Shown here piece after piece: positions 3,133 through 32,223 of a stretch of 34,849 nucleotides of DNA; position 1 is the stretch's first letter; the number at the start of each line of letters is the position of its first letter. The stretch comes from Neolecta irregularis DAH-3. Lineage: Eukaryota. The notes below the pieces were generated by a model. The model was not told the origin of the DNA, searched no databases, and saw nothing but the letters and a program-made list of their open reading frames with translations. Made by a program: the position numbers and the translations under genes. The DNA lies in contig LXFE01000603.1 in assembly GCA_001929475.1 (NCBI GenBank), forward strand, positions 1 through 34,849, written 5' to 3'.

Positions 3133-4272
3133 ATGCGCCAGCCTGGCCCTCGTCGTATAGCTATCGCGCTAGTCGTCTGTCTTGTAATGATCTACTTCTT
3201 TTATCCGAACTCCGATTTAGACTTTCCTTCAAACCCGACATCAGTTAGACCTGCAGTGAGAGAACCTCCCATACAGAAATCTCCACGAAAGCGTCCGAAA
3301 ACACAGCCAATCCTCAAACACTACCAGACTCTGCGTGAGAATTTAGAGTATCAATTCCCTTACGATATTTCGGGGATGTTTCCTACATATATATGGCAGA
3401 CATGGAAATTCAGTCCGAATCAAGATGAGTTCGACGAGAGATTGAGAGAACCGGAGGCGAGCTGGACAGGCATGCATCCTGGCTTTATCCATGAAGTATG
3501 TGTTTCTCCTATTTATGCCTTAATCCTCAGGTCATTGACGATAAAATGGCCGCTGCTCTAACACGACATCTCTTTTCTTCGACGCCTGAAGTTATAGAAG
3601 CATACAATGCTCTTCCTCTTCCCATTTTGAAGGCCGATTTCTTTCGGTATCTTATTCTTCTCGCTCGGGGAGGTATCTACAGTGACATCGATACCGCGGC
3701 CCTTAAACCTGCAAAAGAATGGATTCCGTCTACAGTTTCTCCAGACACTGTCGGAATGGTGATTGGTATCGAGTCTGATCCCGATTTGGATGATTGGGAA
3801 AAGTATTATGTTCGAAGAATTCAGTTTTGTCAGTGGACGATACGAGCCAAGCCAGGTCACCCGATTCTTCGAGAAGTCGTTGCAAGAATCTCAGAGGAAG
3901 TGTTATCAAGGAAAAGTCTCGGCACATTGCTGGATGTAAACGACGTTCTTGAATTGACTGGACCAGGTGTCTGGACTGATTCAGTTTATTGGTGGCTAAA
4001 TCAGATTTCAAATGGACAAAAGGTTTCATGGGAAAATTTCACTGCCATGAGGGATCGGAAGCATATTGGAGACATTCTAGTTCTTCCAATAACTGGTCTT
4101 TCTTTCTTGACCATATGAATACTAATTCGATTAGGATTTTCGCCTGGAGTACGTACAATGGGCGCAGAAGATGATGATCATCCTATGGCAATGGTCAAAC
4201 ATTATTTTGAAGGTGACTTCAACTATTCATGGTCTTTCTGATGCCTTTCTAGGATCTTGGAGAGAGGAATAA
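3133..4272 (+). CDS. OCH1: Initiation-specific alpha-1,6-mannosyltransferase (GT32), Golgi type II membrane protein
   Basis: N-terminal TM anchor; FPTYIWQTWK; ILKADFFRYLILLARGGIYSDID (DXD motif); RRIQFCQWTI; TGPGVWTD; LPITGFSPG; KHYFEGSWR. Introns 3496-3530, 4096-4134, 4213-4252; TAA 4270-4272. Confidence 0.93.
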
Positions 4273-4915
4273 TAATTAATGGATAATTTACAGCATTCTT
4301 TGGCCGGTGTACTGGAGATCTAGCATTCCCAATTTATATGAGGGTTTCCTGACATTATCACTTTCTCCCTGACCCTTCTTAAATATTTTTGCTTAACTGC
4401 TTATCTGCTGTAACGCATGAACTCGACTCGATTTAACGAATCTTCGCAATTACAACACTATTTAGAGATTCCTCTTGGACTGTTCCTAATTTATGAACTC
4501 CACATGTATGCAGGCATGAGATTGTAATTCAGCTCCGAATTTTGGGAAGTTTCTGGCTTAGATGGCTTCTTTGAAGGTACCATGACAATACCGAGAGAAT
4601 ATTTAGTCATAACTTTCAGGGGTTCAACCGAATGGGATACGAATGCCAAATTGCTTTACCAATATCTAGGAAATGTTATTTTAAACATCAATCAAAAGAT
4701 TTAATCGTCTCAGAAAGAAAGATTTGTACCCGATATTTTCTCAAAAGATTATCAACTATGTACACTGGTTATCTATAAGTACACAGAACAATAATAGAAC
4801 TTGGACAGAAAGAAATAAAGTATTCCATAATCCCAATCTGAAGCCCACCAGAGAAAAGAGATTCCCACAGAATACGCCGACCCCGAAAAAAAACAATGCT
4901 GATAACCGCCAAAGT

Positions 4916-7900
4916 TCACCTCAAACTCAACAAACTCAACAATACGATTGCTTGACGATCGCTGCGTTCGGGATGGACCATCGCTAAGACGACGCCTTCG
5001 CCAGTGGCGTCAGATGAGCTAAGTAAACGAATATCTCGACCAGGGATGATTTGGACAAGGACACCGTTGTCAGCATCGTGAACTTCGACAAAATCGGAGT
5101 TCACACCAACGACGTAACCGTAATAATGTGCAACATGACGAGGTCGACCATACCATTCAAGAGTTCGCTGCCTTGATACATCACCATGTTTGTCAACATA
5201 CAAACCACATTCTATAGGTCAGTACGCGCATCTCGACACAAAAGGAAACCATCATAACAAAGCAGAAACTCATTTTCATTTAGCCTGAACATACCTAATG
5301 GCCGAGTGCTATCAAGCCTACTCTTCAGAGCATTCAAATTGGATTCCCGAAGATTAGGAATCGTTTCTGGCTGTTTCGTATCAAGAGTCAAGACCTCGAA
5401 CCCTAGAATTAGGTTCATCTTGTTATAAACATAACGTACCTCTAGTGCATTTAATACACATACTAGCCTTGAAAAAGTGTACGCCATAACAATCCGTCGG
5501 AATGAAAAATTCATCAAATTCGCGAAAGAATTCGGTAGTAGCAGAGGCACTCCACGCACTTCTCCTCAATGAAAATTTATTTTTTTTGGATGAAGTTTTC
5601 CCGACAACAGGTTCGAGGGCCTTGAATACAGAGTTCATTCCCTGTTTCTTTTTGTAGATAACAAGTAATCGATCTTTCTGTCGTCCAACAGAGAAAAACC
5701 CAACGTCGGCTTTTCCTGAGAGTTTATGAGCGGGCTTCGTAGCAGGGCCAGGAGAGAGAATATCCATGGTATACGCAGTGAGTATCTGGTCGGCGAGAAC
5801 AACAATAACCCCGAATTCCTCAAGGACTTCGATTTGTTGGATTTTGTGGAGTGTCAAGATACTTCTCCACCCTCGGATATCTCCAACTTTTGCGACCCAT
5901 AAACCTTGTTCTGTGCCGATTAGAATCATTTTGCTTCCATCGTCATGAGTGAATTCGGTCGCACAAGTGACTCGTGCGAATGTTGGAGCACGTCCACCTT
6001 CAGGGTACTCTTCTTTTAATTCCCTAAATGCTGAATCAAGAGGAGATCCTGGAACGAGAAACCCGTCCTCCATTGCCCCATTAGAATTCATCTCAACACC
6101 GGTGGACCCATCCACATTTCCAAAACAAGCGTCTGAAAGAACGCGAATGTAGAATGGCTCAACGTTTAATTGAGCCAGCTGGTCCACACGACGGCTTTTA
6201 GCGAATAGAATCCGCTCAATCCATTGCTGACGAATATTTCGATCAGCGGCAAATAACGTCCATTCTCCTCCGGACTTTCCAAGATGTTTGATTGTAAAAG
6301 GGAATATCGCGGATTTATCATTTGGAGAAGGAGAAGAATCACCAAGGTGTAATGAATGTCCAGGTTGAATGGCGCCTGTTTTACGTCCAAAGCTGTGAGA
6401 TCTTTGAGATCGAGTGTTTGATAAATCAGCATAAGACCCGTTAGTGTTCACTGTGGAAGTTAATGTTCCAAGGACTTTTGTGGTGCTTGATTTGACGACG
6501 CATTCTTCAGAGCCAGGAGCAATTACGAGGAGGTCAAGTGGAATAGGCTTTCATCATCAGTGAGTCAGCAGAAAGAATGATACCTGTTTTGAAACATAGT
6601 AACGATTTCCACCCAAATCTTTATCTTTCTTGACTTTGGTCATCAGAAGAAAATTATCCAAAAGAACAAGATGAATGTCAAGCCATTCAAGACCAGTTTC
6701 GCTCTTCCTCTGAACGTCTCCTCTCATCAAAATCTCACGCCCTGGATCCTTCAACTCTAGATTCTATATAATTAGTCGTATTTACCAAAACGAAAGAACC
6801 GTTTCATTATTACTCCTGAAAACAATGCGATCGTCCAACTCACGTAACGATAATTTCTTTTCGGTGATCGCAACTTGAATATCGCTTTCTCGACAAACAG
6901 CCTTAATCTCCTCGTTCGCAAGCTCCAAAATCTCCTTGTCAGGATTGGCAAGGTTCGTTTTTTTTAAAACCGTCTCGAGAAGAAGTGTATAACGTTGAAG
7001 ACGTTGTGTAGGTCGCTGTAAAAAACTCCGAAATTCAAGTCTTCGTGAACGGACATCAGCCTGGCATTTCTATTTTTCAGAAAAATAAAAGGTAGGAAAG
7101 CATACATCCAACCATAACCGAAAACTGGGATTTTTTGCCTTCTCTTCACGTACCAGAGCGTCAGCGTTTGGAAAATTGGCATTGTAACTGATATAATTTT
7201 TCCTTGCTCTTCGAATCCATTCAAGAAACGAATCCCCAAGTTCAGTTATCAACCATTTCTGTTCACTTTGTCTCTGTCTCAGACTGTTCAGCAGAGCATG
7301 GTTGTATTTCAAAATGGGCTCTAACCGACCAAAAAGCATCTGTCGAAAATAATCCAAGCGTCCACGGTCGAAAATAACATGTTGCGTAAGCGATTCTCGA
7401 TATAAAGAAAGCAAGAGATCCAGATCGTAGACATACTCATCTTCGGTGAATATAATTTCGTGGATAACATTTTGTCGTGTGATTTCTTCCTTGGAAAGGT
7501 CTTCGAGTTGGTCATCTGTAAGTGACCAGTAGGACATCCAGTCCTTCGAGTTAGCAACAGTGGGTTGCATTGTTATTTTGTAGAGGGTCCGGGAGCATCG
7601 GGGGGCGTAGCATCGGGAGCCATTCAACCCGTCTAGACATCTAGGACTGTAGCACCCTCGACCAGAGAGAGTTGGAAGCACACCAGTGACCGGCCAGCCT
7701 GTATACTGGACATGATCTCCGTCTTGTTCAAACGCCCCTTGCGACATTAAATTTGAAAGAACATGCTTAGCTAGATTTTCCGCGATGACAGTTGACAGAG
7801 TTGGAACGTAATGCTGAAATAGCTGTGTAAGACCATGAATCGATTCTTTTCCCATCAAGGGGTTATTAAGCTCTGACACCCAGATCGCCAATGAACTCAA

Positions 7901-8758
7901 GGCCCAAGGTTCCTCGCATCTTTCGAAATCCTTCGCTGACAGCTTATTGTTGAACGTAGGTGGCAATGAAGGAAGTAGTGGGGTAAGTCCAGTAGGTGGG
8001 ATCGGTTCACTTGGAGTCCGCCGATGTTGAGCAATTATATTATGACTTTGTGATCGAACGACAGAACCAACAGCTACTACGCCAAGGTTATTTGACGGAA
8101 CAATGTGCGATTGCGAGCGATTAACTCGGTGTTTATAAATTGAAGGGTCATAACTGGTAGATTTTGGAAGTGGTCTAGAATAGGATGAGCTATATGGAAT
8201 TGGCGGAGGAGGTCGATTAGGTCCTAGTGGCTGTTTTATGTCTAGGCTCTGGACTTCATAGATATTTGGATGAACTTGAGTTTCAGGAATCAATTCTTGT
8301 CCACGATGAAATGAATATTGACTGCTGGTGCTAGATCTTGTGGGTGGTCGATTGTTCGGAACAGGAGGTAGAGGATGACGAAGCTGCGAATGCTGATACA
8401 AGTTCTGTTTAATAACTGGAGACAGGTAATCCTCGTAAACATCGCTAGGACTCACTTCAGCTGACTCAATAGAGTAATGACTCGAATGTCGATGGACAGG
8501 AGCCAAAGGAAGTGGTTTTCTCTGCGGATGAAGTTCTGAAGACGAAGGGTAAATCACGGTTCCCGGCCTGTCACTTCGGACTGCATAATCCTCGAACTCC
8601 TCATATGGCTGATATGACGAGGGAGAATCTGGCCTCTGCAGATGACCCAACGTCTCGCGATAATCCTGTAGCAGGTTACTCAAGCGGTGATCACGCTTCA
8701 GAGGGACAGGAGGTGGCAATTGGCGTGGTGGAGGAGGAATCCTCCAGTGGTCTCCCAT
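4916..8758 (-). CDS. rgf3: Rho1 guanine-nucleotide exchange factor, Rgf3/Tus1 type (Pro-rich N-terminus, DH-PH-CNH)
   Basis: EPWALSSLAIW; Cys motif CYSPRC...CYAPRC; DH start RQNVIHEIIFTEDEYVYDL; RPTQRLQRYTLLLE; PH HLVLLDNFLLMTK|PIPLDLL; CNH RPLGMFRLNENEFLLCYD. Introns 7070-7105, 6764-6799, 6548-6583, 5403-5439, 5212-5249. First in-frame ATG is 8758; the frame is open to about 8932, so an upstream exon is possible. Confidence 0.88.
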
Positions 8759-9156
8759 ATATTCCGCCGTGGTGGATGGTGATGTAGGGTCTGGCAATGA
8801 CGACGTCAATTGAAATGATGGTTTGGTGTAGACATACCTCCGCTGAGTCACGTTCGGCCTAGTCGTCGCTGTTCCCCACAAACAAAACTTTGTCCGCAGG
8901 GATGCCCAATCTTGGCGTACTGCTTTCGCCAATCTGCACCAATTATATGAACTGGTTTGTCTAGTATCTCCTCATGCTTTGTCGTACGAGAATTCTCCTG
9001 CGAGTCTTCGCAGGGATACTTCTATCTTGCTGATCAGTGAATAAACAATGATGCTTATTTGCTTTGCTTCATACCTTGCGCAAGTTATCCAGGGCTACTG
9101 GAATTATACTCCCCACCAGATGGGGCAGAATAAGATTATATATCAGCTAATTTATC

Positions 9157-9768
9157 CTACTGCATGCTTATCTTCAACTCTGGTTTCCCAGTCCAGGTCT
9201 TATCAATCTCAAATTTTGCCTCTTCATCCCATTCACTATTGAAATGAACCAATCTGCTTTCACAATTCAAAATCGGTTCATTGGGTAGTTGCAAAATACT
9301 TCTCATAAAGTCTGCGTGCCCGACTACAACGATGACATTTTCTTTTCGTTCGCGAAGCCATTGACGGACTTGTTTGGTTCGCTCATCGAGCATCGATGGG
9401 TCGTAGATATCGATCTTTGCGGGATACGGAGGAACACATAGATCTAATTTGAACGAGTAGGCCTCATATAGCTTTCGAAGAGTACGAGTTGGCTGACCAC
9501 AATCACATGGAAATGAATTCGATTCTTGACACTTAGGGTGCACAATTACCGGACTCTGATCGTAATTCAATCCGAGGATCACTGTTTGCATTGTTCTAAG
9601 TAGGGGAGAAGAAACGATCAACTCTATTGGGATGTGATCGAACATTTCATGAAGGGCTCGCGCTTGACTTTCACCCAAAGGAGTGAGAGGTGGATCTGGG
9701 ATATAGTAACGTTCTCCAAGGTTGTGTTCTGCTTGGCCGTGGCGAATGATATAGATTATAGGCGACAT
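9157..9768 (-). CDS. Histidine phosphatase superfamily (phosphoglycerate mutase-like) protein
   Basis: IIRHGQAEHN catalytic motif, DPPLTPLG, VSSPLLRTMQT, QE...PCDCG, VVVGHADF; apparently a single exon of 203 aa. Confidence 0.88.
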   Translation of the reverse strand: MSPIIYIIRHGQAEHNLGERYYIPDPPLTPLGESQARALHEMFDHIPIELIVSSPLLRTMQTVILGLNYDQSPVIVHPKCQESNSFPCDCGQPTRTLRKLYEAYSFKLDLCVPPYPAKIDIYDPSMLDERTKQVRQWLRERKENVIVVVGHADFMRSILQLPNEPILNCESRLVHFNSEWDEEAKFEIDKTWTGKPELKISMQ

Positions 9769-10470: not shown

Positions 10471-11152
10471 ATGAGCACAACTCCGGCCTGTCCCGTATAC
10501 GCTCCCTTCTTTGGGTTTGCAGGCATAGCAGGAGCCGTATATCCCTTTCTTCTAGCCATTCCTGAGATTTTAGATGGTTTTATCTTGTAGGTCTTTCTAG
10601 GAATGATACATCCTTTCTGAACAAGATAGCCTTTGGTGCAGCTTACGGAACTGCAAAGGCAGGAATTGGAATCAGTGGAGTCGGGCAATTTAATCCAAGT
10701 TTAATCATGAAAGTATTTTGCCATTTTCTCATTTAGTTTAATCAGTAGTCTTTGATCCCAGTGGTGATGTCTGGTATTATCGCAGTATATCCCCGCTCCC
10801 TCAAAAACTAAAAGATCTAAAGGTCTACGGCCTTGTTATATCAGTGTTAATCGTTGGGGATATGTCACCACATGCAAATTACTCGCTTTTTAACGGCTTC
10901 ATCCATCTGGCAGCTGGTTTATGTGTTGGATTCTCAGGGTTAAGTGCCGGCTATGCGATCGGAATTGTCGGTGATATGGGAGTGAGGAGCTACCTTAAAG
11001 AACGGAGGCTATTTGTTTCTATGGTTTGTCTTTCCATTCGATCAATGGTTGCTCAAGAAAAGGTTCTTATATTGATTTTCGCGGAAGTACTTGGGCTTTA
11101 CGGTCTTATCGTTGGATTGATCCTGAACACAAAGACGACAAAGATCTGTTAG
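10471..11152 (+). CDS. VMA11: V-ATPase V0 proteolipid subunit c'
   Basis: [79 protein letters not shown] with the essential Glu. Introns 10537-10573, 10587-10629, 10713-10748, 10785-10822, 11024-11062; 13-nt micro-exon 10574-10586. Confidence 0.9.
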
Positions 11153-12575: not shown

Positions 12576-13302
12576 TTAGAGAATATCGCACTTGTTCATG
12601 ATTTTCTTGCGATCTTTATGAGCAGTTCCAGCGCCAACTTCCTTCCTCATGATCTGTCTACAGAGGTCGGTGAAGACTTCGTCAATGTTGATTCGCTTTC
12701 GAGCAGATGTTTCGTAGAAGGGGGAATTTCCAAACTTTTCAGATAGTTCAATTCCTTGGGCTCTGGACACCACTCGGTCGTCTTCCAAGTCACATTTATT
12801 ACCCACGAGAACGAGCGGGATCTGTATAATGAGCGAGGTAAAGAGGACGACGCACGTCACGGATGTTATCAGTATCTTTTACGCGAAGGATTTGATCATG
12901 GAGATCTTGAAGATCTCTGACGGAGGCTTGCGAAGTAATACTGAAGACGAGCACGAACCCTTGACCGTTCTTCATGTAGAGATCTCTAATCCCAGTGAAT
13001 TGCTCGGTGCCGGCAGTGTCAAGGCTAGTCTGTCAGCGGGGTGATTGTGTGGTTTAAGGGGCTACATTTCGAGGGTGCATTGGCGGCCGTCTATCTCCAC
13101 CATCTTGCGATAGGAATCTTCAATTGTGGGATCTGGGGCATAAGAAGATGGCATGGACGGCAGGATGTACCATATCGCTCAACCCAGACAGAGCTGACGA
13201 ACTGCACGGTCATTGCGGATTTCCCAACACCGCCGCAGCCTTGAGAGTCAGAAGCGGCCAAGACAGGAGAGCACCAAGAACTACAATCTTGTACTCTCTC
13301 AT
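12576..13302 (-). CDS. RSR1: Ras-family small GTPase, Rap1/Rsr1(Bud1) type
   Basis: [43 protein letters not shown] (Thr61 is the Rap signature); [13 protein letters not shown]; CaaX CDIL. Introns 13240-13274, 13133-13170, 13025-13065, 12822-12855. Confidence 0.9.
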
Positions 13303-13538: not shown

Positions 13539-13680
13539 TCCCGGATATCTGCGATATATTGCTCCTCCCGGATATCTGCGATATGTTGTTACCCGCGATA
13601 TCGCCATACTCCAGTTCCTCATCGCCGCTACGGCCTACTCCTGCTACTCGTCGTCGCTGCCCGCGACATCGCCATACTCC
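13539..13680. repeat. Degenerate direct repeats derived from the SND1 3' coding end
   Basis: CCCGCGAYATCGCCATACTCC at 13592-13612 and 13660-13680 (20/21); TCCCGGATATCTGCGATAT exact at 13539-13557 and 13566-13584 (27-nt period). Confidence 0.8.
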
Positions 13681-16458
13681 CAAACGCCCCGGCGCTCCCG
13701 CCGCGCCGCGTCCATCGCCAGCACCAGCTCCCGCCCGGCGCCCTTCTTCAGGCTGACTATGCCCTCGCGCACAAGCTCCGCCGCCACCGCCTGCAGGTCC
13801 AGCCGCAGCACGCCGCCCTCCCGCGACTCCACCACCGCCGCGACAGGATCCGCCAGCGCCCCCAGGAACTGCTTGTACTCTGCGAGATAGTCGTGGTGCA
13901 GTCGCAGGTGCGACGCAGCAGCAGCCTGCGCCTGTCCAGGCAGCGAGCCAAACCGGGGATCGCCAAGCTCGCGAATCTCGTTCTGCGGCAAGGTCTCTGT
14001 GTTTCCGTAATCAATGTATTTCTCCTGGTCAGCACCGGAAATGAACAACAGGGGGAGTTACAACGTCCACTTTGGCGCCAGCAACACGGACGACTTTGGC
14101 TCGATACCACAACCCGTCTTCGCTAAACCTGGCTGCAACCAGCTCGCCGTTGCGGAGTTTCTTGCTGCTCGGCGGCTTGGCTCCCGCATGGAAGCTTCGA
14201 AATTCTTTCATCAATCGATCCAGCTGTTGGACACCTTCATAATAAGACTCCATATATAATATAATACCATACCATCGCCGACGATCTGCACACTCAAGGC
14301 CCCCTCGTCATCCACATCCGTAACGATAACCTGGACCTCTTCCATCCTTGTCCCCACGGGAGTCTCTTCAACAGCATCGACATAGTCCACCCACAGACCC
14401 TTCTTGCCCTCTTTTGCTGCTGTCTGCAGATCGCTATATTTCTTTGGAATATTGTAACCGTTTGCATACCCCCAACCTTGCTCAAGCAAACTTTCGCCAA
14501 AGTCCAAGCCTTTGAGATACAGGGTTCCAATAAACCCCCCGTTCCGGTCGACCCCTTCAATACTAACTTCGACATCTCGTTGTAATACCCGATGAACAGA
14601 ATACCGCAAACTTTCAGGACCATGGGGATCTTCAGAGCGCGGAGACCGAATATTACTCAACACCAACAGAATCTTCACATTCTGATTCCCCAACAATATC
14701 TTGAATCTAGATGCGGAAGAGACAAATTCGACTGTACCGGTCATACGTTTCTGTCGCTGAAATGTGGATAGATAGGATTTGGCTCGGGTGGCGGTTTCAC
14801 TTGCATCAACAATTCGCTGAACTACAGGTGGTTTTATTGAAAATATCCCTTTCTGACTGGTTTGCGACTCGAGTTCGGCAGAGAGTAACTGATCGTAAAT
14901 CGGACTTCTGTCTTCATCGTCCTTCCGGTGACGTACGACAGTAGCGCGTCCTCCTTCGACCAATTTCAAAGCTATATTTCTATTATTTAGAAACCTCAAT
15001 GGAACAAGTACACTTACTGGCCATTCTGAATTATTGTCGCACAGTCACGTTCTTCAAAGCCCTCGTTAGCAGGCTTGGTATAGTCAATCGTAACGTGAAC
15101 TGTTTTCCCAATTATTTTCTTGCGAAGAAATTCTTTGGTTTCTGGGAGCCATGCCGCTTGAGTTGGATCCGCTGCTCTATATCTCTTAATATCTCTACCT
15201 ATATTGGGTCGAGATACTTTGGTTGTCGAATACTGCTAAGCTGAACTCGTTTTTCTTCCCCAGATTTCAGGAGGAGATCGAGAGTATCTCCATTCTGAAT
15301 TCGAAATACAGTAGCATCGAAGGATTTCAAATTCCGGGTCTTTGCAATATGTCCTTTCCATAAATTTAATTTAATTTCTTTTGCCGCTCTTCTAATTAGT
15401 ATTTCTCAATGCATAAATCTACCTTTCAGCATTTCGAAGGGCAGCCATATCATTTCCAACAAGGCTACTCATCCAATCGACACATCTAGCCAGACCTGAA
15501 TTCAGCAATGCCTCGGCGATATTTCCAGCAGGATGTTTAATTAATCCAATAAAGAGATTTCCGGATTGATTTGTACCAAGGAGTGTAATCTTCACAGTTC
15601 GCTGGAGAAGTCGTTGTTCCACAAACCACTTGGCCTTGTACGAATTAGCCTTTGAATCTATGGGATATTTACTTGATCTCCGAATTCTTCTCCAAGTTCA
15701 TTGTTATCGTCACGAGCGGGATTCGGAGCTCGAATTCCGGCGATGATGACTGGTAGCATCTGATGACTATTCCCTGAAAGCAGTAATCGAGCTCGTAATT
15801 GATCCCCGGATCTTACCTGTTCGATAATTGCTGCTCTAGTTATCCAAATGCTCTATTAAATCTGGAATGATGATACCATCAACCTCTCGACCCCTAAATT
15901 CCTCCAAAAACCCAGTCGGTTCAGAAATATCATATTTCACAATCAAACTATCTTTGTTTCTCCAAATTCCTCGTTCTTCCTTCCGAGCAACATCCTCGTA
16001 TCCTTTCAAGATTTCCAAAATCTCTTCATCTCGATTCATGGCATCGTCGCGAAGTCGGACGACTCCCTCTTTCACAGCCACCTGTAGAATATCCTGACCA
16101 TTCAAAAATACCGTGCCGTATTCGCGTTGGGAAGTCGGTACTGTGTAATGAATAACAAAATCGACCTCCTTCCCAACAAGAAGCTTTCGCAAGAATTCTC
16201 GGGAAAAGAAAGCCCACGGCTTTACCAATTAGTTTATCTTTGAAAATCTGATCGCAAAGACATACTTCATCGCCTTCTCGTCGGAGACGAGGAGCAGAGA
16301 CCCACGCGAGAGAAAGGGTTCGTTCGAGAGGCGGTTGGTTTCCTCTGGGTTTTCCGGCGAGAACAATTGTGTCTCCAGAGTTAACTGATCAATTACGCCA
16401 ATTGAAACAACTTGAAGCAAATACCCAATTTTACTTTTGCGTGCATAGTTCCTTGCAT
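13644..16458 (-). CDS. SND1: Tudor-staphylococcal nuclease (Tudor-SN/p100)
   Basis: AKVKLVNSGDTIVL; APRLRREGDEPWAFFSREFLRKLLVGK; GNIAEALLNSGLA; VVRHRKDDEDRSPIYD; Tudor ARFSEDGLWYRAKV...YIDYGN; C-terminal GVWEYGD. Introns 16385-16424, 16220-16265, 15831-15876, 15635-15672, 15389-15422, 14980-15017, 14235-14272, 14025(or 14022)-14061. Start is 16458 or 16446. Confidence 0.92.
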
Positions 16459-16728: not shown

Positions 16729-17825
16729 TCAAGCTTGTTCCAGCTTTTTCTTCAACAACTCTTTCAGAGAAACAGCATCTGCTGCAAATTTTCGAATACC
16801 TTGAAAGTGAGCTGTTCACATTCAAAGAGGAGACATACCATCACTCAATTTATCAACAGCCATTTCATCTTCATTGAAAGCCCATCGGAATTCCGACTCA
16901 TTGTTAATGTACGATACTTTTTCCATCTTTTGTGATTTCGCTATTCCATGTCAATCGACTATAAAAAAGGAAAGATGAACTACCACTTTCTGGCGAGAGC
17001 TTTGCCGTGATTTTAGTGTTGGAGTTTTTGAGTTCGGAGAGGAGAGAAGGTGAAATGGTAAGATAGTCACACCCAGCCAGTTCAATGATTTGATCGGTGT
17101 TACGGAAGCTCGCACCCATGACAATTGTCTTGAATCCGAATCGTTTGTAGAATTGATAAATTTGTGTAACTGTTTGAACACCAGGATCTTCGGAACCATT
17201 GTAGTTCTTCCCGGTCTTGGCTTTGTAGAAATCAAGAACGCGGCCAACGAAAGGGGAAATAAGAGTAACACCGGCTTCTGCACATGCCACTGCCTGAGCA
17301 AAGCTAAACAAGAGAGTCAGATTGCAGTGCACGCCATGGTCTTTTTCGAGAATGCGTGCGGCGTGGATACCTTCCCAAGTGGACGCGATTTTGATCAAGA
17401 CGCGGTCCTTGGAGATTCCCTGTTCCTTATACAGATCAATGATATGGAGCGCTTTCTCGATGGTTTTCTTGGTGTCGAAAGAAAATCGAGCATCAACTTC
17501 AGTGGAGACGCGGCCGGGGACGATCTTGAGGATTTCTCGGCCGAATTCAACCAGGAGACGATCGAGAGTTGCATCTGTCTTGGCGCAGAGAGGACCTGAA
17601 TAATGTTTGCCGTACTTTACAGCGGCATCGATGAGGTGAGAATAGGCAGATTTCTGGGCAGCGACGAGCAGGAGAGATGGATTTGTGGTTGCATCCTGAG
17701 GTTCATACTGCGCAATGCTTTCAAAGTCGCCACTGTCACTAACGACAACAGTTCCGATTGCCTACTCAGAGTTAGACAGGTCAAGGAAAGCCGGGTGCTT
17801 TGAGCTGGTCGAGTACAGACGTCAT
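16729..17825 (-). CDS. TAL1: Transaldolase
   Basis: [53 protein letters not shown] (Schiff-base Lys); [26 protein letters not shown]. Introns 17762-17798 (GC-AG), 16941-16983, 16800-16838. Confidence 0.95.
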
Positions 17826-19940: not shown

Positions 19941-22573
19941 CTATATTTCAATACCATCGTTGGGCTCAGAATCAGATTCCGATCTATTAGATGTAGGTGG
20001 AAAGTCCTTTGATAAATCGCTTTTTGAAATTCCTCCAGCTGGAGGTTTTATCCTTGTAGCCCGTCCTGTCCGCCCCATAGGCGTATGAGGAGGCGGACGA
20101 GAAGGCGGTAAAATTGGAGAAACGGCAGTTCCCAATGGCATATCAGACATTTCAGTTCTCAGGTAGAATGGATGTTCGGGTTTTTGTGAGCCTTGGAAGG
20201 CAGGTTCAGGCATGGCAACACGAGCAAGATCTTCATCTGCTGTGCGAATTCGTCGTGGGTCATGTGGAGAGACATAGCTTGTACTGTCGTCTCTTGAATA
20301 TTCGGCAGGGGATGACTTCAACCCACCACTGTTATTATTTTCTTTGAACCATCGAAAGGGTTTAAATCGGTCTCTTACTTCTCGAACTTTTACACTTGAA
20401 GTTTTCTTTGACGTTGGTCTTAGCACCGGTGTAGTAACAGGATCATCCGGTGTTCTTCGCTTTTTTTGATGTCGAAGTGGCGATGCAGGTAGATCACCCC
20501 TCCTGGGCCTTGATCGTAGAACAGGAGACTTTCCAGATTCAGGTACATTAGGCATTGCAATTTTCTCTTCAAAGTCGCTTTTTGGGTAGGGAAAGGGGGA
20601 AGATGACACTGTTTGCGGTATTGAATCTTTTGACTTTCGTTTCAGACGCCGTCTTTGGGGTTTCTCCGATGATGAAGCAGACACTGAACTGCTTGAACTG
20701 AAATTTCGTTGCTTTTTATGTTTCGGACGAATTGTAAAGCGATCTTCAGCAATAACGATATCTTTTATTCCTTTGTAAGACTTTCCTTCAATCCTCCAGT
20801 ATTCCCTACCCCAGATCCACCCAATGCCTAGCCATCAGATCATCAACCTTAAATGGCATACTGATGAAGCAGATGGTTAAAAACAACAAGATTGATCCAT
20901 AATTCCAGGTTCTATAATCAACAGGTTTGAAACGAGGAAATAGAGCCACGGCAAGTTGAAACAGAACCCAGAAGATTGCAGTTGAATTTGACAGTGAGCC
21001 AACTATTCCTAGGTGAAAGCCACGATGAAATGGGAGAGTGTGTCTTCCTCGAAATGAGATGACAAGAAGCGGAATAACTGTGTGTCAGTAATACATGCGA
21101 GAGCAAAGGATACGGTATATGACTTGATAAACAATTGGACCAAACGTTGTAAGAGTTTGAAAGACCAGTGGATCGACAAAGTAGAACATTATGACAACCA
21201 TTGGAACCATCACAGTCACCACTATTGCGTTTTTGGGAGTTTGATAGCGGCAATGCAAAAGGAATAGACTAGCTGTAAACATTATGTTGATAAGAGGGCG
21301 TACCCATGGTGTCCAGACTCTCTCGAGACACTCCATAACACCTTACTGGAGCATGATATCAACATAGACGAAGCGATTAGCCCGAATATTGTGACCATAC
21401 CAGTTAGTATCGTAGCTATAACGTTATACGTGGCATGATTGGCAAGGAGAGTAAGATATGCTGATGGAATATTCAGATATACAGGATAAGCTGAAGGAAG
21501 ACCAGATTTAGGAATAATGAAGAGTAGCGCAAGAAGGAATATCGTGCCGGTACATATATTTATCAATGTTGAGCATATGATTGCTTTGGCAACTCCGAAT
21601 TTTGGATTAAGTGCTTCCTCTTGGAGAGACGAAACGCTTTCGAACCCGGTGAACGTAAATGAAGAAGTCATTATACCGAGGGTAAAGACATAGCTATTGG
21701 TTGTCCAACTAGTTGTTAGCTATATAGATGAGGTGGAAATACCCGCTCGAGTTTATCCAACCAAAGAAAGCAGTCCCAGCGCTGTTTACGCGAGGCGCCA
21801 TTCCCAACGCCATGGCAACAGAAAGAACAGTCCCCAAAAAAGTGAAAATTACTGCAAGTGTTATAAGAGTAAAGCAAGAAAGTTACGAAACGGGGTTACA
21901 AGCGAAACGGTTGTCAATTGGCTGCCTATATTCCACAGTGCCAAGATCAACAAGAACAAGAGCGAGGTCAAAATAACATGCCAGTCTTGGGTATTGAACG
22001 AGGAGTGAAATAGAGGTATGATGCCAAATATTTGATATGCGGAGCCAAAGGTTAGCTGTGTAATTAACAGCCATTGGGCGATAAGTGTTAAATATGCGGC
22101 AAGAAATGACTTTATATTAGGACCAGTTACAAGTAATTCTGTTACCAGATAACGCCTATATGAGGCGCTACTAAGATGGAATATCCATACCCATGGACCA
22201 CCATTTACTGGGAAGCAACTTGCTATTTCGGCTATACTGAGGGCTTGATAGTCAGATATTTCAACAATCGTAGAGATCACCTAGAGGAATTGTCATGAGA
22301 CAACTAATTAGCCATCCCCAAAACATAACTTCCTGACCCCCCCAAATTACATAGTTGGAAAGATTATTGACGATCTGACTGACCGGCCTATATATCACCG
22401 TCAGACCCTGAATCTTGAGATACATACGAAACAATTAAAGCTTGGATAGCTATTATTTGCCACACTGTAAATCCACGTTTGAGTATGGGCTGGTATCCCA
22501 TCAGTTCTAGGTCAATGTCATCCTGGCGAATCTGGCGAGCAAGAGCCCTCAGGTGAGGAGGCGGGCGATTCAT
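19941..22573 (-). CDS. APC-superfamily amino-acid/amine permease (GABA/choline-transporter-like) with a long hydrophilic C-terminal tail
   Basis: LELMGYQPILKRGF; WGGQEVMFWGW; SIAEIASCFPVNGGPWVW; FTGFESVSSLQEEALNP; WSVSRESG; TPKNAI; FPRFKPVDYRTWNY. Introns 22388-22427, 22244-22280, 22110-22145, 21852-21886, 21709-21742, 21269-21303, 21078-21113, 20828-20861. Last exon 19941-20827 is in frame with the 247-aa ORF of the track. Confidence 0.82.
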
Positions 22574-23064: not shown

Positions 23065-24704
23065 ATGTCCTTGGCAGACGAACTTCTTGCTGATTTCGGA
23101 TCAGACCCCGAAGATCAGGACCACAATCAAGAAGAACCAAACTCAAAGGATGGGGTTCACCATCCCATCTCTGACAACGACAATGAGGAAAGCACCACCA
23201 CGGCGATCAAAAACATCCAAACGGATAATGCGGATCTCACGGAAGCAGAACAGATCGAGAAGATCGTGATGAAAGAAATACAAGATGTTGGGAGAGTCGC
23301 TAAAGTCATGCAGTCGAAATATGTCGATGAAGTGTTGAAAGTATTTGATCCCTTCTCTGAGAGAGTTGATGAATAGCAAATCGATTACTACAGTCAGCAC
23401 GAGAAATTGCAAATCGTTGGAAATATCGAAGATGATCCGGAATATCGACTTATTGTTCAGGCAAATAATGTTGTCGTGGATATCGATAACGAAATTTTGT
23501 TGGTTCATAAGGCATTATTTTTCTTTCCTGTAGAACTAAAGTGTAGTTCATCCGCGATCATTACGGAGAAAAGTTCACTGAACTCGAATCACTAGTCATA
23601 CATCCTCTTGATTATGCAAAGTCTGTAAAAGCTATCGGGAATGAAACCGATATTACGAAAGTCGATCTCAAATTTCTTCAAGCAGCAACAGTAATGGTCG
23701 TCACCGTTACATCTACAACTACAGCTGGATCCCCCCTCTCAGAGCACAGATTGAACATCGTCATGAAGGCCTGTGATATGGCTTTATCTCTAGACGCAGC
23801 AAAACGAAAGATTCTTGATTACGTACAATCACGAATGTCATTGATTGCTCCGAATCTTTCCGCAATTATCGGATCTTCGACAGCCGCGAAGTTGATCGGT
23901 ATTGCTGGAGGACTTACTGCTCTTAGTAAAGTACCTGCATGCAACGTTTCCGCCCTTGGTGCAAAGAGAGCAACCCAAATTGGATTTTCGACAGGGGTTA
24001 CTATACGACATCAAGGATTTCTATTCCATTCTGAGCTAATTCAGCGAACACCCCCAGACTTCAGAAAACAGGCACAACGTATTGTTAGCGGCAAAATCAT
24101 TCTTGCTGCTCGAATTGATCGCATTCACGAAAGCTTGGATGGTTCTCATCTTTCCCCAATCTAAACTAACTAAGTAGGCTCAGTAGGACTCAAACTGCTG
24201 GATGAAGTTACCACGAAACTCGAAAAACTTAGCGAACCTGCGCCCAAAAAGAATGTAAAGGCTCTCCCCGCTCCTGACGATCCCGCTCGGAGGCGGCGAG
24301 GCGGCAAACGCGTTCGAAAGCAAAAAGAAGCATTTGCAGTAACCGAACTTCGCCGCCAGCAAAATCGAATGGCATTCGGAAAGGAGGAAATGGAGGTTGG
24401 TGTTTACGATGAGACTGTTGGTTTGGGGATGATCGGCCAATCTGATCAGGGAAAATTGAGAGCTGCTGCAGCTGATTCGCGTACAAAAACTAAATTGCCC
24501 AAGCACCTCAGAAATCGAATGGATGCCCTTAGAAGTTCAGCCGGAAACACAGGAAATTTGGATGGGACGATGTCGAGTTTGGTTATGAGTAGTCAACAAG
24601 GGATTAGTCTTGTCAATCCACTGCTTGCGGAACAACAAAAGAATAAGCTAAAGGAGGCTAATGAAGGTTATTTCTCGGGAATTTGGACAAGTGTGAAAAA
24701 ATGA
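23065..24704 (+). CDS. PRP31: U4/U6.U5 tri-snRNP splicing factor Prp31 (Nop domain)
   Basis: MSLADELLADF; GNIEDDPEYRLIVQAN; VHK|FIRDHY; VQSRMSLIAPNLSAIIGS; SKVPACN; RRRRGGKRVRKQKEAFAVTELRRQQNRMAFGKEE. Introns 23341-23376, 23512-23546 (GC-AG), 24142-24177. Confidence 0.95.
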
Positions 24705-26323: not shown

Positions 26324-26458
26324 TGCCATCGCTGTCAACTCTAGTCCACAAAAATTTCCTTGGTTTTTTTAGCCCGTCGACTTCTTTGACAGCAGTCGTC
26401 CTCCTCTCCGTCTCATCTAATTATACCTTTGTTTATCTACCAAGACCTAATCGCTGAA

Positions 26459-26994: not shown

Positions 26995-27254
26995 GCCATT
27001 TCGATTCAGACAGGGACTGGACGATTCTTTGTGATGGTTTTGTTAAGATAGGTGTGCGTGGTTCTTTTTTGTAAATATTGACTTCGTCTCGGTCTTGGCG
27101 TCGGTCATATGTCTCTTCTTTTTGGTGTTTGGGAGGGTTGGAGAAGGCTTGTGACCAAGATAGTTATTTCCTTTGGGATGATATATACTGCAAAGCTCCC
27201 ATATATATCATACTACCCACCTTGATATCTAGTTTCTATTTATCCAGTCAATCT

Positions 27255-28062
27255 CTATTTCTCCAGAGAAGCGGCAAGATACGCAGCCCATCCAGCGTCT
27301 CGGTATCTCTTAGCCTCAACCACAACATCCTCCGCACCGTATATTCCTCTTCCGACTATGATCACGTCGGACCCCGAGTCGATGGCCTGCTGGGGGGTAC
27401 GATATTGCTGGCCAAATGAATCTCTGGAAGTGTCCAAGGACACACCGGGAGTGAAGACTAAAAAGTCATCGTCGGAGACCTTTCGTCCAGCAACAAATCC
27501 GATGACGAAATCTTTGTTCCTTTGAGCCATTGAGATACAGGATTCGGTGTAAGAACCGGTAGCCATCGATCCCTCTGACGACATTTCCGCCAAAAGAAGC
27601 AGGCCGCGTCCTTTCTCAAGACCGCCTTCCTTCAGCCCCGCGACGATCCCATCTCCGGGAAGAGGATGAGCATTGGTTATGTCGGCCCAGGACGAGATCT
27701 TGTAGATACCCGAAGTGTACTGCAGTTTGACGGTATTCCCGATATCCGCAAACTTGCGATCTTCGAAAATCAAAAAGTCGTGGCGGGCCTGGAGTTCCTG
27801 CAGCCGACGGATAAATTCCTGGTCAAAATCCTCGAGAATGTCGATATGCGTCTGCACGGGTCAACACCGAGACAGAGAAGCAGATGACTTTGAGCACACA
27901 GATGTAGGGTCCGACAGCATCAACAAGGGTGAGCAAAGCGGTCTTGCGCGTAAGGTCTGCGGCGACGCATAGATTCGAATTCTTGCGCTGGATGATGCCA
28001 AACAATCTCTGTACAACTGAATTGGTGTAGTGGGCTGCGCGCTCAGTGTAGGTATCAACCAT
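27255..28062 (-). CDS. URA3: Orotidine-5'-phosphate decarboxylase (ura4/pyrG orthologue)
   Basis: [36 protein letters not shown] active-site signature; [26 protein letters not shown]. Intron 27852-27888. Confidence 0.97.
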
Positions 28063-28461
28063 CGTTTTGGAGGCGAGTCCTAGCGTTGTTTTACTGTAAA
28101 AATGCAAACCAGTGTCATCGGAGAATCATAATTGAACAATTACATCTATCATACCATGCAAAACTGTGTGACATGAATCTTTCTTCTATCCTAAAGAATC
28201 GCGCACTCCCTACAGACAGTCATCAGCTCCGTTATGCAAGGAAACTTCCATGCAGATGATTCCCCTGACGTATATCTATATTATATATTGGAAAATATCA
28301 GAAGGAATAAATTGACCTCAAATAAACTCGATCAAGGAAACCTTGTACAACAAACAAAAAATCGATTACTCATACCCATCGCCAACTCCGAACAAAGTCT
28401 TGCATCAGAACAAGATAACACCGAGAAAAACAATCCGGGACCCCAGAAACAACAGTGACAT

Positions 28462-31400
28462 CTAAATGTGCCTCATTAGAGCATGGACTTGATTTTCTCC
28501 CTCCGAATTCTCGCATCCGTACAGAATCTCGCCCCCTTCGCCTAACTTACCTCGGCCATCGGATAGAAGAGTAATGTTATTACCAGGGATGACTTGACTT
28601 AAAGCTCCTGATTCCAGATGGTGAATCTCGATGAAGGAAGGTTCAAAAGCGAGTATGTAAGGGTAATTTAGCGCTGAAAATCAATTAGAGTAACTGAAGG
28701 AAGATACCAAATGATGAAGGCATTCCTTCCCAGTGAATAATCCAATCCGACCGTGCTCTCCAACCATTCTTGTTAACAAAAAAGGCGAATTCTAGCTTAT
28801 TAGCTCCTAAAAAGGGGTCTAGCGGACCATCGTAGCAAACGAGGAATTCTCCGTTCATTCTATATATTGCAATTGGCCTAACGGTTTCTCGCCGTTGGAC
28901 GAAATCCAAGCTCGTGTCCGCAGGATCCAAAAGACTTTGTGTCTCAAGATTTTCAAGACTTACAACTTCAAATCCTTTCGCGCAACCAACGCACAACTTC
29001 GTCTTGAGAAAGTGTATCGAAGAGGACTCAGTGGGAATGTAAAATTCCTGTACAATCAGCTGAAGCAGGAAGTGGATTGCACACCTTGAATACTTTCAAC
29101 ATTTCGGTTCCACCTTGCAACAACTTTCGAAATGCAGGTTGTTTTTTTCCTTTTGAAACATGATCTACGGGCTCAAATACTTTGATCGTAGATGACAAAA
29201 CGCTGCTTTTCACGACGCACACAAGAAAGCGTCCGAGACAAACACCAACTTTAAAAAAGTTGAGATGTCCAGCGATTTTTCGTGGCCGCTTATTGGCGAG
29301 AGTTTGATCATTTGGATCAAGAGCCTCAAGTGGAAAAGAAAACAACGATTTATCAGAGAGAACGAGGATCAATCCATATTCTTCGAGAATATCCATTTGT
29401 GCAACATTCGACAGCGTTAATGTGCGCACAGGAGTCGATTTTGTTGTACTGTGTGGTTTTCGATCAGATACATATATTCCAGTATCGGTTCCATATGCAA
29501 GCTTTCTTCCGCCATCTAAAGATTAGCAATTTCAATTCGTTAAACTTGCCGAAAGGAACCAGACAGTTTACTCTGTTCCCGCCCATGAAATATTTCTCAC
29601 AAGTAACTACAGAAACAAACACACGACTTCCTTCTATCAGAAGCCTCTGTTGTGAGGATATATTCTCGATCCACTTTCTCCGATTTACATAAGTTCCCGC
29701 ATATAGCGTTATCGTATAACCTCGTCTGCCGAGATGTGTAAAAACAAGTGAATAACCACCGCTTTTTCCAGTATCAGCTTTCGTGGTTTCCAATTTTCCG
29801 TTTTTTGAGGTTCCAGGTAATAAACTGGAACTAGGTCTTTTGGTTAAAGATCCACGCGGCTCTTCGGCAGTTGAAACAACGAGCAGTTCCAGTGGAATAG
29901 GCTTCTAGTTAGCATATAATAGAAACGAAAACGCACCCTTCTAGTGACTTTGTACTGTTCTCGTTTACTTACAACCTTCACTTTAACGATCAAGAGGGCA
30001 TGGTCAAATAAGAAAACTTGAACAGTATCACCTCTGGTATCACTTGAACTTTCACGTTTTTTCAGCATGCCCTTATGTAGCATTTGCCGGTTTGGATCTG
30101 ATAACTTCAAATCGACATTTTCGCCTTGTTTGAAAGAAAGCCGTTCTTCGAGTTGCATGAGATTGAATAAATTTTCCGATTTTCCAGATTCCTCGTTTAC
30201 TCGAGCGAGAAATTGACGGATAAGTTCAATGGCTTTTGGAATATCTTCGTGATCGGAATTATCTTCATCAGTATATTTAAGAACTGCTTCAAGTAACAGT
30301 GGATAACGGGCAAGACGAGTTGTGGGCTTTGTGAGATAGCCGTTTAATTCTAGTTTTCGTGACTCCTTTAATCGTTCTGTTTCTTCCGCAAACTTGGCGA
30401 AAAAGGGATTACTGGATTTTTCCTTTTCAAATTCGTATTTGCCCCAAAGTTGGTTCGCACCATACTTGATAAAAGGCTCAAAGCGAGGGACGTATTCGAG
30501 GAAAATGTCACCAATTGTAGAGACTACTGGTTCCCGTTGTTGGCGTCGAGTCAATGCTTCTGCGAGACGACAATTGACCACATGGACTTCTAAAATATTT
30601 GAAAAAACAGTTTTTATGAATTTGTCTCGGTAAGAATCAGAGATGGTAGATTGGATTCGAAGAGGTTTTATCCAAAACTATTTCCACGTCAGTAAAACAT
30701 AAAGGCACGGTCCACGGGGAAATGTTAAGCCTAGGACTCTGAATAGAGGAAAAACTTACATCTCGTAAATATTCAAGATCTTTTACAAAATCACGCTCTG
30801 TATAGCTGACTTCGCAAATAACTTCTTGTCGTTTCTTCTCCTTGTCGGATGTCAGTTCAGCAATTTCCTTTGGAACTGAATGGATCCAGAGTTTTTGCTC
30901 GCCTTCATCTTCTTTTAAGGAGGCTCTGGAATCCGCACGTTTAAGTCCCGTCGGTTTCAAATTCAATCGCGCTTGTTGTTCTAATCTCCTTGGACACGCG
31001 ATGCTATAACATAAACGATCTCTGGTACATGTTGGGCTATAGCATTCTGTAAGAAGAGTGAAAACCCCGTTTGGAAAATCGTCCATATCCCCAGAAACAC
31101 GAGGAGATGGGGATGAAATTAAATCTGCTAGGTCGCTCGGATTCTCGAAGCTTGGCGAATTAAGCCGCTCTCTGAATTGATATATCTCATTTGCTCGATC
31201 ACGAAGACGGTGCTCGTAGGTTACATCATGAAAAAACTTTTGAGCATCGAGAGATCGACCGAGTAGTAATGCGAGATTGCGGTCCGTAGTTTTGATTAGG
31301 TGCATTATCATATCGACCGCCTCAGATCCCGAAAATGCTGCCTTATATGTAAGCCCATCCTTCTGCTTGTCTGAAAGGAAAAGTCGATTCCGAAATGCTT

Positions 31401-32223
31401 CCGACACGAGAGATAATAGAGCGGGATAAGTAACAGCTGGTCTCTTTTGACGACTCTGAACGGTAGCAGTGTTTGTAGAAGCGATTGATGATATTGAATA
31501 GGTACGATCCACTTCTGAAATACCACTGAGATTCGACGTGGTAGTCGCTGTGGAGAACTGGCGCTTCGGCGGGGCTCGAGACATGCTGTCGCTTCGCGAA
31601 TCGGATGCGGAAGAGAAGCTATGCGACCGTTCTTGCGGCGTTTGGGATAAGGAACTTGTCGCGGAAATATTTCTATTGGGCGGGGGAGCTGACTGAAGAC
31701 TCCGTGTGCGATATGAATCGGAGTTAAGTGCTGGTGCAGTAGGCGGGTCACCCGAAGATATAGATCGAGAAGAGTATGCCGGGGGAGGATATGATCGTTG
31801 TGGAAATTGATTTTGATTGCTATCATATTGAGGAGCCGTATATGAACTGGGTGCAGACGGATGGTCGTGCACTCGAATTGGTGGTGGATTGCGATAGCCA
31901 TCAGATCCATTGAAAGGGAGTTGTGGCGGTCTTTGCTGAGGCAGGGGACGTTGCTGGTAATGATGCGCCAGATACTGGGAATCCGGATAATAATGTTGGT
32001 TAGTCAACGGAGGAGGTCTAAGTTGTTGAGGAGGATGATTCAGAGAATTGACGTAAGAGAAGTTGTTATAGCCAGGCGGGAGACTTGGTCTTTGCGGCCG
32101 TTGCCCTGGTAGATGACCGGATCGCGATTGGACACCAGGAGTTCGACCAGGCGGGGGAGCATTTCCAAAGATATTATTGAAGGCTGCAGAGCGCTGATCA
32201 GACGTCGTTGCATTCGCTCGCAT
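28462..32223 (-). CDS. rgf1: Rho1 GEF, Rgf1/Rom2 type (DEP-DH-PH-CNH)
   Basis: YPALLSLVSEAF; DEP DRNLALLLGRSLDAQKFFHDVTYEHRLRD; CYSPTC...CYSIACPRRLEQQ; RQEVICEVSYTERDFVKDLEYLRD|FW; RKLELNGYLTKPTTRLARYPLLL; CNH TQSLLDPADTSLDFV; ends GEILYGCENSEGENQVHALMRHI*. Introns 30678-30759, 29902-29936, 29516-29549 (GC-AG), 29048-29084, 28792-28827, 28674-28707. Confidence 0.95.

Follow-up and report, generated by a model that had tools for sequence, protein, structure and literature searches.

How is an intron found by the spliceosome when it measures less than 40 nucleotides and its 5' splice site carries little sequence beyond the first two letters? This question is raised by a stretch of 34,849 nucleotides (nt) from Neolecta irregularis DAH-3, an early-diverging ascomycete of the Taphrinomycotina (contig LXFE01000603.1 of assembly GCA_001929475.1, positions 1 to 34,849 of the forward strand; hereafter the window), in which a sequence-only reading had pointed to mini-introns of nearly fixed length with a "collapsed" donor consensus. 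We rebuilt the gene structures of the window independently, which gave 11 gene models, ten of them with introns, and 47 introns in total. In our view these are, with a probability of about three in four, ordinary U2-type introns that have shrunk to approximately the shortest spliceable length in a compact, intron-rich Taphrinomycotina genome. This genome comprises 14.5 Mb with 44% GC and 5,546 genes, and RNA-seq support is reported for 99.4% of the predicted genes (PMC5309816); in a further study, 1211 ortholog alignments contained 4202 introns of N. irregularis when counted at aligned positions (PMC7940399).

Intron Length and Splice-Site Composition

Once the introns are removed, all 11 gene models read as single open frames, with 47 introns distributed over 17,952 nt of coding sequence. 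Their lengths lie between 34 and 46 nt in 46 cases (median 37), the remaining intron measuring 82 nt, and the distribution shows a sharp lower edge at 34 nt with a tail to the right: six introns each of 34 and 35 nt, nine of 36, six each of 37 and 38, three of 39, four of 40, and two each of 41, 43, and 46 nt. Calculated on a set of 39 introns and without the 82-nt outlier, the standard deviation (SD) is 3.0 nt. Introns are richer in T than exons (36% versus 27%), and every one of them starts with GT or GC and ends in AG (44 GT-AG and three GC-AG).

Ascomycete and other fungal donors typically follow GTRNGT with a well-kept G at position +5, which is found in about 75% of introns. In the window, +5G is present in 18 of the 47 introns (38%; 95% interval roughly 25-54% by our own estimate) and lacking in 29, which is above the base composition of 0.215 (binomial p=0.0065) and far below the typical value (p=1e-7); the information at this position amounts to 0.16 bits in the 39-intron set. 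Other preferences are retained, namely A at +3 (34/47), a pyrimidine at +6 (42/47), and G at -1 (26/47). Taken together, positions +3 to +6 of the 47 introns hold 1.73 bits, or 1.54 bits after small-sample correction, and the commonest donor hexamers occur four times each. Among the acceptors, TAG predominates with 24 cases, followed by AAG (12), CAG (10), and a single GAG.

These counts closely reproduce those of the sequence-only reading, which had listed 46 introns (45 of them at 34-46 nt), 28 donors without +5G, three GC-AG introns, and 12 AAG acceptors. What does need to be toned down is the notion of a collapsed donor consensus: the donor is indeed weak, at about 1.5 bits, but the preferences at +3, +6, and -1 have not gone, and the total falls at the lower end of the 1-4 bits published for intron-rich species (PMC2483917).

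Branch Site and Spacing

In 30 of the 47 introns there is a YTRAY motif whose branch A lies 6-11 nt from the intron end, as compared to 3.8 +/- 1.9 (maximum 10) in 300 shuffles of the intron interiors. In the 29 YTRAY introns shorter than 60 nt, the donor and the branch A are separated by a median distance of 27 nt (range 26-36, SD 2.3), and another 8 nt (median) lead from the branch A to the 3' end. Eight of the 30 introns skip an AG located 3-7 nt past the branch A, which could explain part of the AAG acceptors.

The spacing is highly informative. When the branch site is known, choosing the GT closest to a 27-nt distance recovers the true donor in 26 of 29 introns, the same score as that of a leave-one-out donor matrix (26/29), where 15.7 would be expected by chance. 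The combined pattern of GT, a length of 34-46 nt, YTRAY at 6-11 nt from the end, and AG fits 27 of the 47 real introns and occurs 14 times in the 17,952 nt of exon sequence; when A at +3 is added, none of these 14 exon decoys is left and 16 real introns are kept. Branch site and spacing hence hold most of the internal information of these introns, in line with the proposal of the sequence-only reading that the introns are defined by branch site and distance.

Reconstruction of the Junctions

An initial map of the genes was generated from the sequence alone by our own codon-usage dynamic programme. It merged or skipped small exons and misplaced several junctions, giving, for example, 64 nt for the 37-nt intron of URA3 and 85 nt for a 34-nt intron of Rom2. 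The junctions reported here stem in part from our own spliced protein-to-genome aligner, which accepts only introns that begin with GT or GC and end in AG, admits lengths of 25-250 nt, and charges a flat intron cost; because it is blind to donor positions +3 to +6, it cannot favour consensus donors. The homologs aligned in this way comprised eight transaldolases, 48 Tudor-SN, 24 Rom2, and 16 Rgf3 proteins, whereas alignments to Protein Data Bank (PDB) entries, Pfam profile coordinates, and an enumeration of frame-compatible alternative introns served for the remaining genes. Altogether, 23 introns are based on spliced alignment to 8-48 homologs, seven on PDB alignments, and five on Pfam coordinates, so that homology fixes 35 of the 47 junctions; in three further introns the donor is constrained by the frame, and the other nine (Prp31 intron 1 and the eight introns of an amino-acid permease) were placed by reading frame only.

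GC-AG Introns

GC donors usually carry a strong flanking consensus. The three found in the window are GCACCC in the transaldolase gene (17762-17798), GCATTA in the Prp31 gene (23512-23546), and GCAAGT in the Rom2-like gene (29516-29549), of which GCAAGT shows the flanks typical of GC donors and the other two have poor ones. Against an expectation of 1%, three such introns among 47 are an excess (p=0.012); for comparison, 98.7% of introns in annotated fungal genomes are reported as GT-AG, and GC-AG introns make up less than 1% in model organisms (PMC7072748).

For both poor GC donors there is an upstream GT that would also preserve the frame. In the transaldolase gene, all eight homologs vote for the GCACCC intron, and the rival donor GTACTC lies 18 nt upstream. 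The transaldolase protein deposited at NCBI (P0001) maps exactly to the window and has the same second and third introns as our model, but its first intron is a 55-nt GT-AG intron; the exon at 16904-17761 (minus strand) shares 99% identity with this N. irregularis DAH-3 protein. Use of the latter would remove the peptide VLDQLK, which is found in the N-termini of all ten homologs among the matches listed, including P0002, an 87% identical transaldolase. This protein is encoded on a short JGI contig and bridges the first junction, which gives the only, indirect, indication that such a segment is missing from mature mRNA. In the case of GCATTA, human Prp31 aligns up to and including VHK and again from F113 onwards, and the rival donor GTTCAT, 9 nt upstream (44-nt intron), would delete VHK. 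Since the residues cut by the upstream GT donors are conserved (VLDQLK, and VHK as compared to human IHK), we prefer the GC donors for both introns, and the deposited transaldolase model is probably wrong at its first junction. It is also conceivable that the GC and the upstream GT donor are both in use at these two introns.

Probable Explanation: Ordinary Introns Close to a Lower Length Limit

The hallmarks of U2-type introns are evident in the window, with GT or GC and AG at the ends of all 47 introns, the branch motif in 30, and the frame restored in all ten intron-bearing genes. On our favoured explanation, each intron would be a three-part unit, consisting of the donor, a spacer of about 27 nt up to the YTRAY branch site, and a stretch of 6-11 nt that runs to the first AG able to serve as acceptor. 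So short and uniform a unit is most likely read by the spliceosome as one piece (intron definition). Much of the specificity would then come from the branch site and from the fixed distances between it and the two intron ends, and for the donor a GT, an A favoured at +3, and a pyrimidine at +6 would nearly suffice. The length distribution would result from a lower physical limit together with deletion bias or selection for compactness, with no need for a special ruler; its sharp lower edges (34 nt for the whole intron and 26 nt for the donor-to-branch distance) and the right tail do look like a pile-up at such a limit. Both recognition across the intron and the steric limit are inferred from established knowledge of short-intron splicing.

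Several observations weigh against this explanation or limit its reach. The lack of +5G is not made up for at -1, -2, +3, +4, or +6 or via the branch motif (all Fisher p values at least 0.2), and the GCACCC and GCATTA donors lack the strong flanking consensus, which an ordinary model does not predict. YTRAY is missing at the expected place in 17 of the 47 introns, so that the branch site does not account for all of them. The weakness of the donor is itself less pronounced in the homolog-voted introns taken alone, where +5G reaches 11/23 (48%). In addition, all junctions were deduced from protein homology or reading frame and not from RNA, P0001 as the only deposited model compared disagrees at one of the three transaldolase introns, and a single contig with ten intron-bearing genes is possibly unrepresentative of the genome.

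The most far-reaching alternative would make N. irregularis the first fungus found with branch-first splicing, in which nearly all introns are about 37 nt long and the donor is read mainly as a GT or GC some 27 nt upstream of the branch site. If true, this would explain the dispensable +5G, the missing compensation, and the functioning of GC donors with flanks as poor as those of GCACCC and GCATTA; it would also mean that the contacts of U1, U6, or Prp8 with the donor are relaxed in comparison to other ascomycetes and would provide a natural system for determining the minimum donor sequence that a spliceosome needs. We nonetheless regard it as unlikely. A related and, in our estimation, quite unlikely scenario, the one put forward by the sequence-only reading, is that of a dedicated ruler, in which the donor is chosen at a set distance upstream of the branch site, and a change in U1, U6, or Prp8 leaves pairing at +5 unchecked. 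The low +5G frequency (18/47; 0.16 bits in the 39-intron set) and its lack of compensation at -1, +3, +4, and +6 would fit well here, as would the recovery of 26/29 true donors by spacing alone, the sharp 26-nt minimum between donor and branch A, and the occurrence of GC-AG in 3/47 introns, two with poor flanks. However, the leave-one-out donor matrix does equally well (26/29), which indicates that the donor sequence is still informative, and A at +3 (34/47) and a pyrimidine at +6 (42/47) have been retained. A pile-up at the lower length limit gives the same distribution, and the existence of an 82-nt intron, which has the best donor of the set, argues that the spacing is not obligatory. Intron-rich species in the range of 1-4 bits moreover have, as far as is known, ordinary small nuclear RNAs (snRNAs). 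With about 1.5 bits of donor information, Neolecta lies within this published range (PMC2483917). A search of the contig with Rfam at gathering thresholds returned no matches, snRNA genes included, and the Prp31 encoded in the window is intact and aligns with human Prp31 over residues 70-483, which shows only that this one tri-snRNP protein is ordinary. Altered proofreading by U1, U6, or Prp8 would be a purely conjectural addition that the data do not require.

Could the anomaly instead have been inflated by miscalled junctions, through a wrong choice among in-frame GT..AG pairs and through GC-AG introns that are in truth GT-AG introns with upstream donors? In-frame alternatives exist for many introns, in-frame GTs are found 18 and 9 nt upstream of the two poor GC donors (the NCBI model takes the first), nine junctions were placed on reading frame only, and +5G climbs to 11/23 in the best-supported subset. 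The homolog votes are near-unanimous at most junctions, though, and the alternatives delete conserved residues (VLDQLK in all ten listed homologs; VHK, similar to human IHK), while the alternative donors GTACTC and GTTCAT would be non-consensus as well. For GTCTTT, GTGACT, GTTTCC, GTGCTC, and GTATCT, the frame permits no other GT or GC. We therefore consider this explanation distinctly improbable. That the genes of this contig have unusually short introns with weak donors and the rest of the genome resembles other Taphrinomycotina is very improbable, given that the same length class recurs in ten of ten unrelated genes (housekeeping enzymes, signalling proteins, a transporter, and a splicing factor) with nothing to point to their common regulation or origin, even if these ten intron-bearing genes all come from one 35-kb contig.

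A U12-type origin was also considered and rejected. Introns of this type carry a RTATCCTY donor and a TCCTTAAC branch site, and only one of the 47 donors starts with GTATCCTT (21078-21113, in the permease gene), with a branch site of the U2-type (CTGAC). The donor of this 36-nt intron on the minus strand begins GTATCCTTT, and we attribute its likeness to the U12 motif to coincidence within a set of donors rich in pyrimidines. A survey of more than 3000 genomes reports no convincing minor introns in Ascomycota (PMC10639083).

Comparison with Known Systems

The general phenomenon has already been published. Irimia and Roy described in 2008 intron-rich lineages that combine short introns with degenerate splice signals, i.e., Paramecium tetraurelia, the Bigelowiella natans nucleomorph, and dicyemids, and reported donors mostly restricted to GT(A) in Paramecium and in the Bigelowiella nucleomorph (PMC2483917). 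The sequence-only reading had suspected that unusual introns might already be on record for the lineage of the window. Among the papers listed for Neolecta, we found none on intron length or splice-site composition; the main text of the genome paper is silent on introns and splicing, and its supplement may give intron statistics (PMC5309816). The annotation of N. irregularis is public, and the raw facts can be retrieved from it.

Neolecta shares with the lineages of Irimia and Roy a high intron density, a narrow band of short lengths, and a donor that is mostly GT(A) with little information at +3 to +6. It differs in that their introns of about 18-25 nt have no branch-point signature, whereas those of Neolecta measure about 37 nt and have a fixed YTRAY; ascomycete fungi are not listed in this class. 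Neolecta hence resembles the class in donor and length and is not a full member as it was described. Regarding the information at +3 to +6, the same paper gives 0.5 bits for dicyemids, 1-4 bits for intron-rich species, and at least 5 bits for intron-poor ones, as well as 2.3 bits for Aspergillus fumigatus, so that the Neolecta donor with about 1.5-1.7 bits is weaker than that of A. fumigatus and stronger than that of dicyemids (PMC2483917).

Other fungi with short introns that rely on intron definition include Schizosaccharomyces pombe with a median intron length of 56 nt (PMC2483917) and Cryptococcus with a mean of 65 nt and degenerate signals (PMC5851062). As in these fungi, the introns of Neolecta are U2-type GT-AG introns with a CTRAY-type branch site near the 3' end, signals weaker than those of budding yeast, and several introns per gene; unlike theirs, they are shorter (median 37 nt), far more uniform, and nearly uninformative at +5. 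Iwata and Gotoh reported in 2011 that intron length adds much to recognition in a cluster of 14 species, ten of them fungi (PMC3033335). This agrees with a role of length as a source of specificity, spacing alone identifying 26/29 donors in Neolecta. Yet Neolecta was not among the species of that study, in which length is a statistical quantity and not a mechanism, and our figure comes from another method.

Should the pattern hold genome-wide, the introns of N. irregularis would be among the shortest and most uniform of the fungi compared here, with a donor among the weakest, and the species would bridge fungal short introns that have a clear branch site and the tiny introns of protists with a degenerate donor. 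Practical consequences would arise for gene prediction, as software built around GTRNGT and around GT as the sole donor dinucleotide will place such junctions wrongly; this appears to be the reason why the deposited transaldolase model has lost six conserved residues, and gene models of N. irregularis may contain errors where the donor is GC or otherwise weak. The uncompensated weak donors and the poor GC donors furthermore represent natural substrates for experiments. The pattern alone does not demonstrate a new splicing mechanism.

Genes and Introns of the Window

Introns are given below in the direction of transcription, with length, donor hexamer, and acceptor in brackets. Four genes were resolved by spliced alignment to homologs. 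The transaldolase gene (16729..17825, minus strand; 325 amino acids (aa) in this model) contains three introns at 17762-17798 (37 nt, GCACCC..TAG), 16941-16983 (43, GTAGTT..TAG), and 16800-16838 (39, GTATGT..AAG), which received 8, 7, and 8 votes from the eight homologs. A metagenome scan with a transaldolase exon returned eight loci, all at most 64% identical, and yielded no gene structure of a sister species; these loci were set aside.

The gene for Tudor-SN (SNase repeats and Tudor; 13644..16458, minus strand, 817 aa) is interrupted nine times, at 16385-16424 (40, GTATTT..CAG), 16220-16265 (46, GTATGT..AAG), 15831-15876 (46, GTATCA..CAG), 15635-15672 (38, GTAAAT..AAG), 15389-15422 (34, GTAGAT..AAG), 15177-15217 (41, GTATCT..TAG), 14980-15017 (38, GTAAGT..TAG), 14235-14272 (38, GTATGG..AAG), and 14022-14061 (40, GTAACT..GAG). 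From 5' to 3', these obtained 9, 36, 48, 48, 44, 43, 44, 40, and 37 votes from 48 homologs, with the C-terminal part redone using 15 homologs; for the last intron, ten of the 48 votes favour a 37-nt version ending in CAG. The last exon (13644-14021) has a G+C content of about 70%, as compared to a contig average of about 44%, and aligns to the C-termini of all 15 homologs. This GC-rich exon is joined through a typical 40-nt intron, and local GC-biased conversion is possible among the causes of its composition.

Two genes encode putative Rho guanine nucleotide exchange factors (GEFs). The Rgf3-like RhoGEF (4916..8758, minus strand; Pfam WH_RGF3, RhoGEF, PH_5, and CNH) has an uncertain start codon, the frame being open up to 8971, and five introns at 7070-7105 (36, GTATGC..TAG), 6764-6799 (36, GTTCTT..TAG), 6548-6583 (36, GTATCA..AAG), 5403-5439 (37, GTACGT..TAG), and 5212-5249 (38, GTTTCC..TAG), supported by 16, 16, 16, 15, and 15 of 16 homologs. 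Two further candidates in this gene, 6068-6097 (11/16 votes) and 6393-6437 (3/16), are in frame, free of stops, and only partially voted for, and were set aside as lineage-specific insertions. The Rom2-like Rho1 GEF (28462..32223, minus strand, 1167 aa; Pfam DEP, RhoGEF, and PH_5) has six introns at 30678-30759 (82, GTAAGT..TAG), 29902-29936 (35, GTGCGT..AAG), 29516-29549 (34, GCAAGT..TAG), 29048-29084 (37, GTGTGC..CAG), 28792-28827 (36, GTCCGC..TAG), and 28674-28707 (34, GTATCT..CAG), for which 24, 19, 24, 23, 24, and 24 of 24 homologs voted. A 33-nt in-frame and stop-free GC..AG candidate at 31136-31168 (12/24 votes) was likewise rejected as a lineage-specific insertion. The only long intron of the window, 30678-30759, thus combines a consensus donor (GTAAGT) with a unanimous vote (24/24). 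It holds a nested 31-nt GT..AG unit that shares its acceptor and whose use would add 17 residues absent from all 24 homologs; this unit possibly represents an alternative donor.

Protein searches returned homologs of Tudor-SN, Rom2, and Rgf3, though not the proteins of N. irregularis itself, whereas the transaldolase search did return its own protein. It is possible that the deposited models of these long genes with many introns are broken up or merged, or deviate in some other way.

PDB alignments guided two genes. The V-ATPase proteolipid c' gene (Vma11-like; 10471..11152, plus strand, 162 aa), aligned to the yeast c' and c subunits, has five introns at 10537-10573 (37, GTATAT..TAG), 10587-10629 (43, GTAGGT..TAG), 10713-10748 (36, GTATTT..TAG), 10785-10822 (38, GTATAT..AAG), and 11024-11062 (39, GTTTGT..AAG). 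Its exon ends agree with the yeast subunits at IMK|SL and A|VYGLV, and the fifth intron, which is in frame, is covered exactly by a 13-residue gap. Between the first two introns (37 and 43 nt) lies a micro-exon of 13 nt (10574-10586, plus strand), which restores the spacing and the peptide MVLS; the yeast c' chain has an identical peptide at the corresponding position. The gene for Prp31, a U4/U6 snRNP protein (23065..24704, plus strand, 510 aa), was aligned to human Prp31 and has three introns at 23341-23376 (36, GTATTT..TAG), 23512-23546 (35, GCATTA..TAG), and 24142-24177 (36, GTTCTC..TAG). Exon 2 ends with ..VHK (human ..IHK112) and exon 3 begins at F113, while the end of exon 3 and the start of exon 4 both fall on G314. 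Intron 1 is forced by an in-frame stop and its donor is not pinned by homology, exon 1 having no usable match in the PDB.

Pfam profiles placed the junctions of the Ras-family (Rsr1/Rap1-like) GTPase gene (12576..13302, minus strand, 192 aa; Pfam Ras), where the profile is continuous across the exons (6-29, 29-51, 53-103, and 104-161), and of URA3. The four introns of the former are located at 13240-13274 (35, GTGCTC..AAG), 13133-13170 (38, GTACAT..CAG), 13025-13065 (41, GTAGCC..TAG), and 12822-12855 (34, GTGCGT..CAG); there is no frame-compatible alternative to the first, and the sole alternative to the fourth measures 61 nt and would delete nine residues. The URA3 gene for orotidine monophosphate (OMP) decarboxylase (27255..28062, minus strand, 256 aa) has a single intron at 27852-27888 (37, GTCATC..CAG), the junction of which (VLK|THID) follows from the Pfam OMPdecase profile: positions 1-31 end with ..VLKV in exon 1, and positions 30-221 begin with QTHID in exon 2.

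The Och1-like glycosyltransferase gene (3133..4272, plus strand, 341 aa), with Pfam Gly_transf_sug on its main exon, has three introns at 3496-3530 (35, GTATGT..CAG), 4096-4134 (39, GTCTTT..TAG), and 4213-4252 (40, GTGACT..TAG). All frame-compatible alternatives to the second and third keep the same donor, and the first has one alternative, a 29-nt GTTTCT intron. In the gene for the amino-acid permease with a long C-terminal tail (19941..22573, minus strand, 781 aa in this model), where Pfam AA_permease_2 matches two exons only, the junctions were read by eye from the reading frame alone to give one open frame. Its eight introns are 22388-22427 (40, GTATGT..TAG), 22244-22280 (37, GTGATC..AAG), 22110-22145 (36, GTAACA..AAG; in frame, stop-free, and the least certain), 21852-21886 (35, GTAACT..CAG), 21709-21742 (34, GTATTT..TAG), 21269-21303 (35, GTACGC..TAG), 21078-21113 (36, GTATCC..CAG), and 20828-20861 (34, GTATGC..TAG); the metagenome scan with a permease exon returned no relatives. 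The eleventh gene, encoding a PGAM-like histidine phosphatase (9157..9768, minus strand, 203 aa; Pfam His_Phos_1), is a single open frame in which no intron was found.

Finally, an open frame at 18832-19617 (minus strand) would encode 261 aa with a hydrophobic N-terminus and no Pfam match. It contains two similar stretches, ..RPVPR..PAL.S.. and ..IE/KHPQMR.GLAS...

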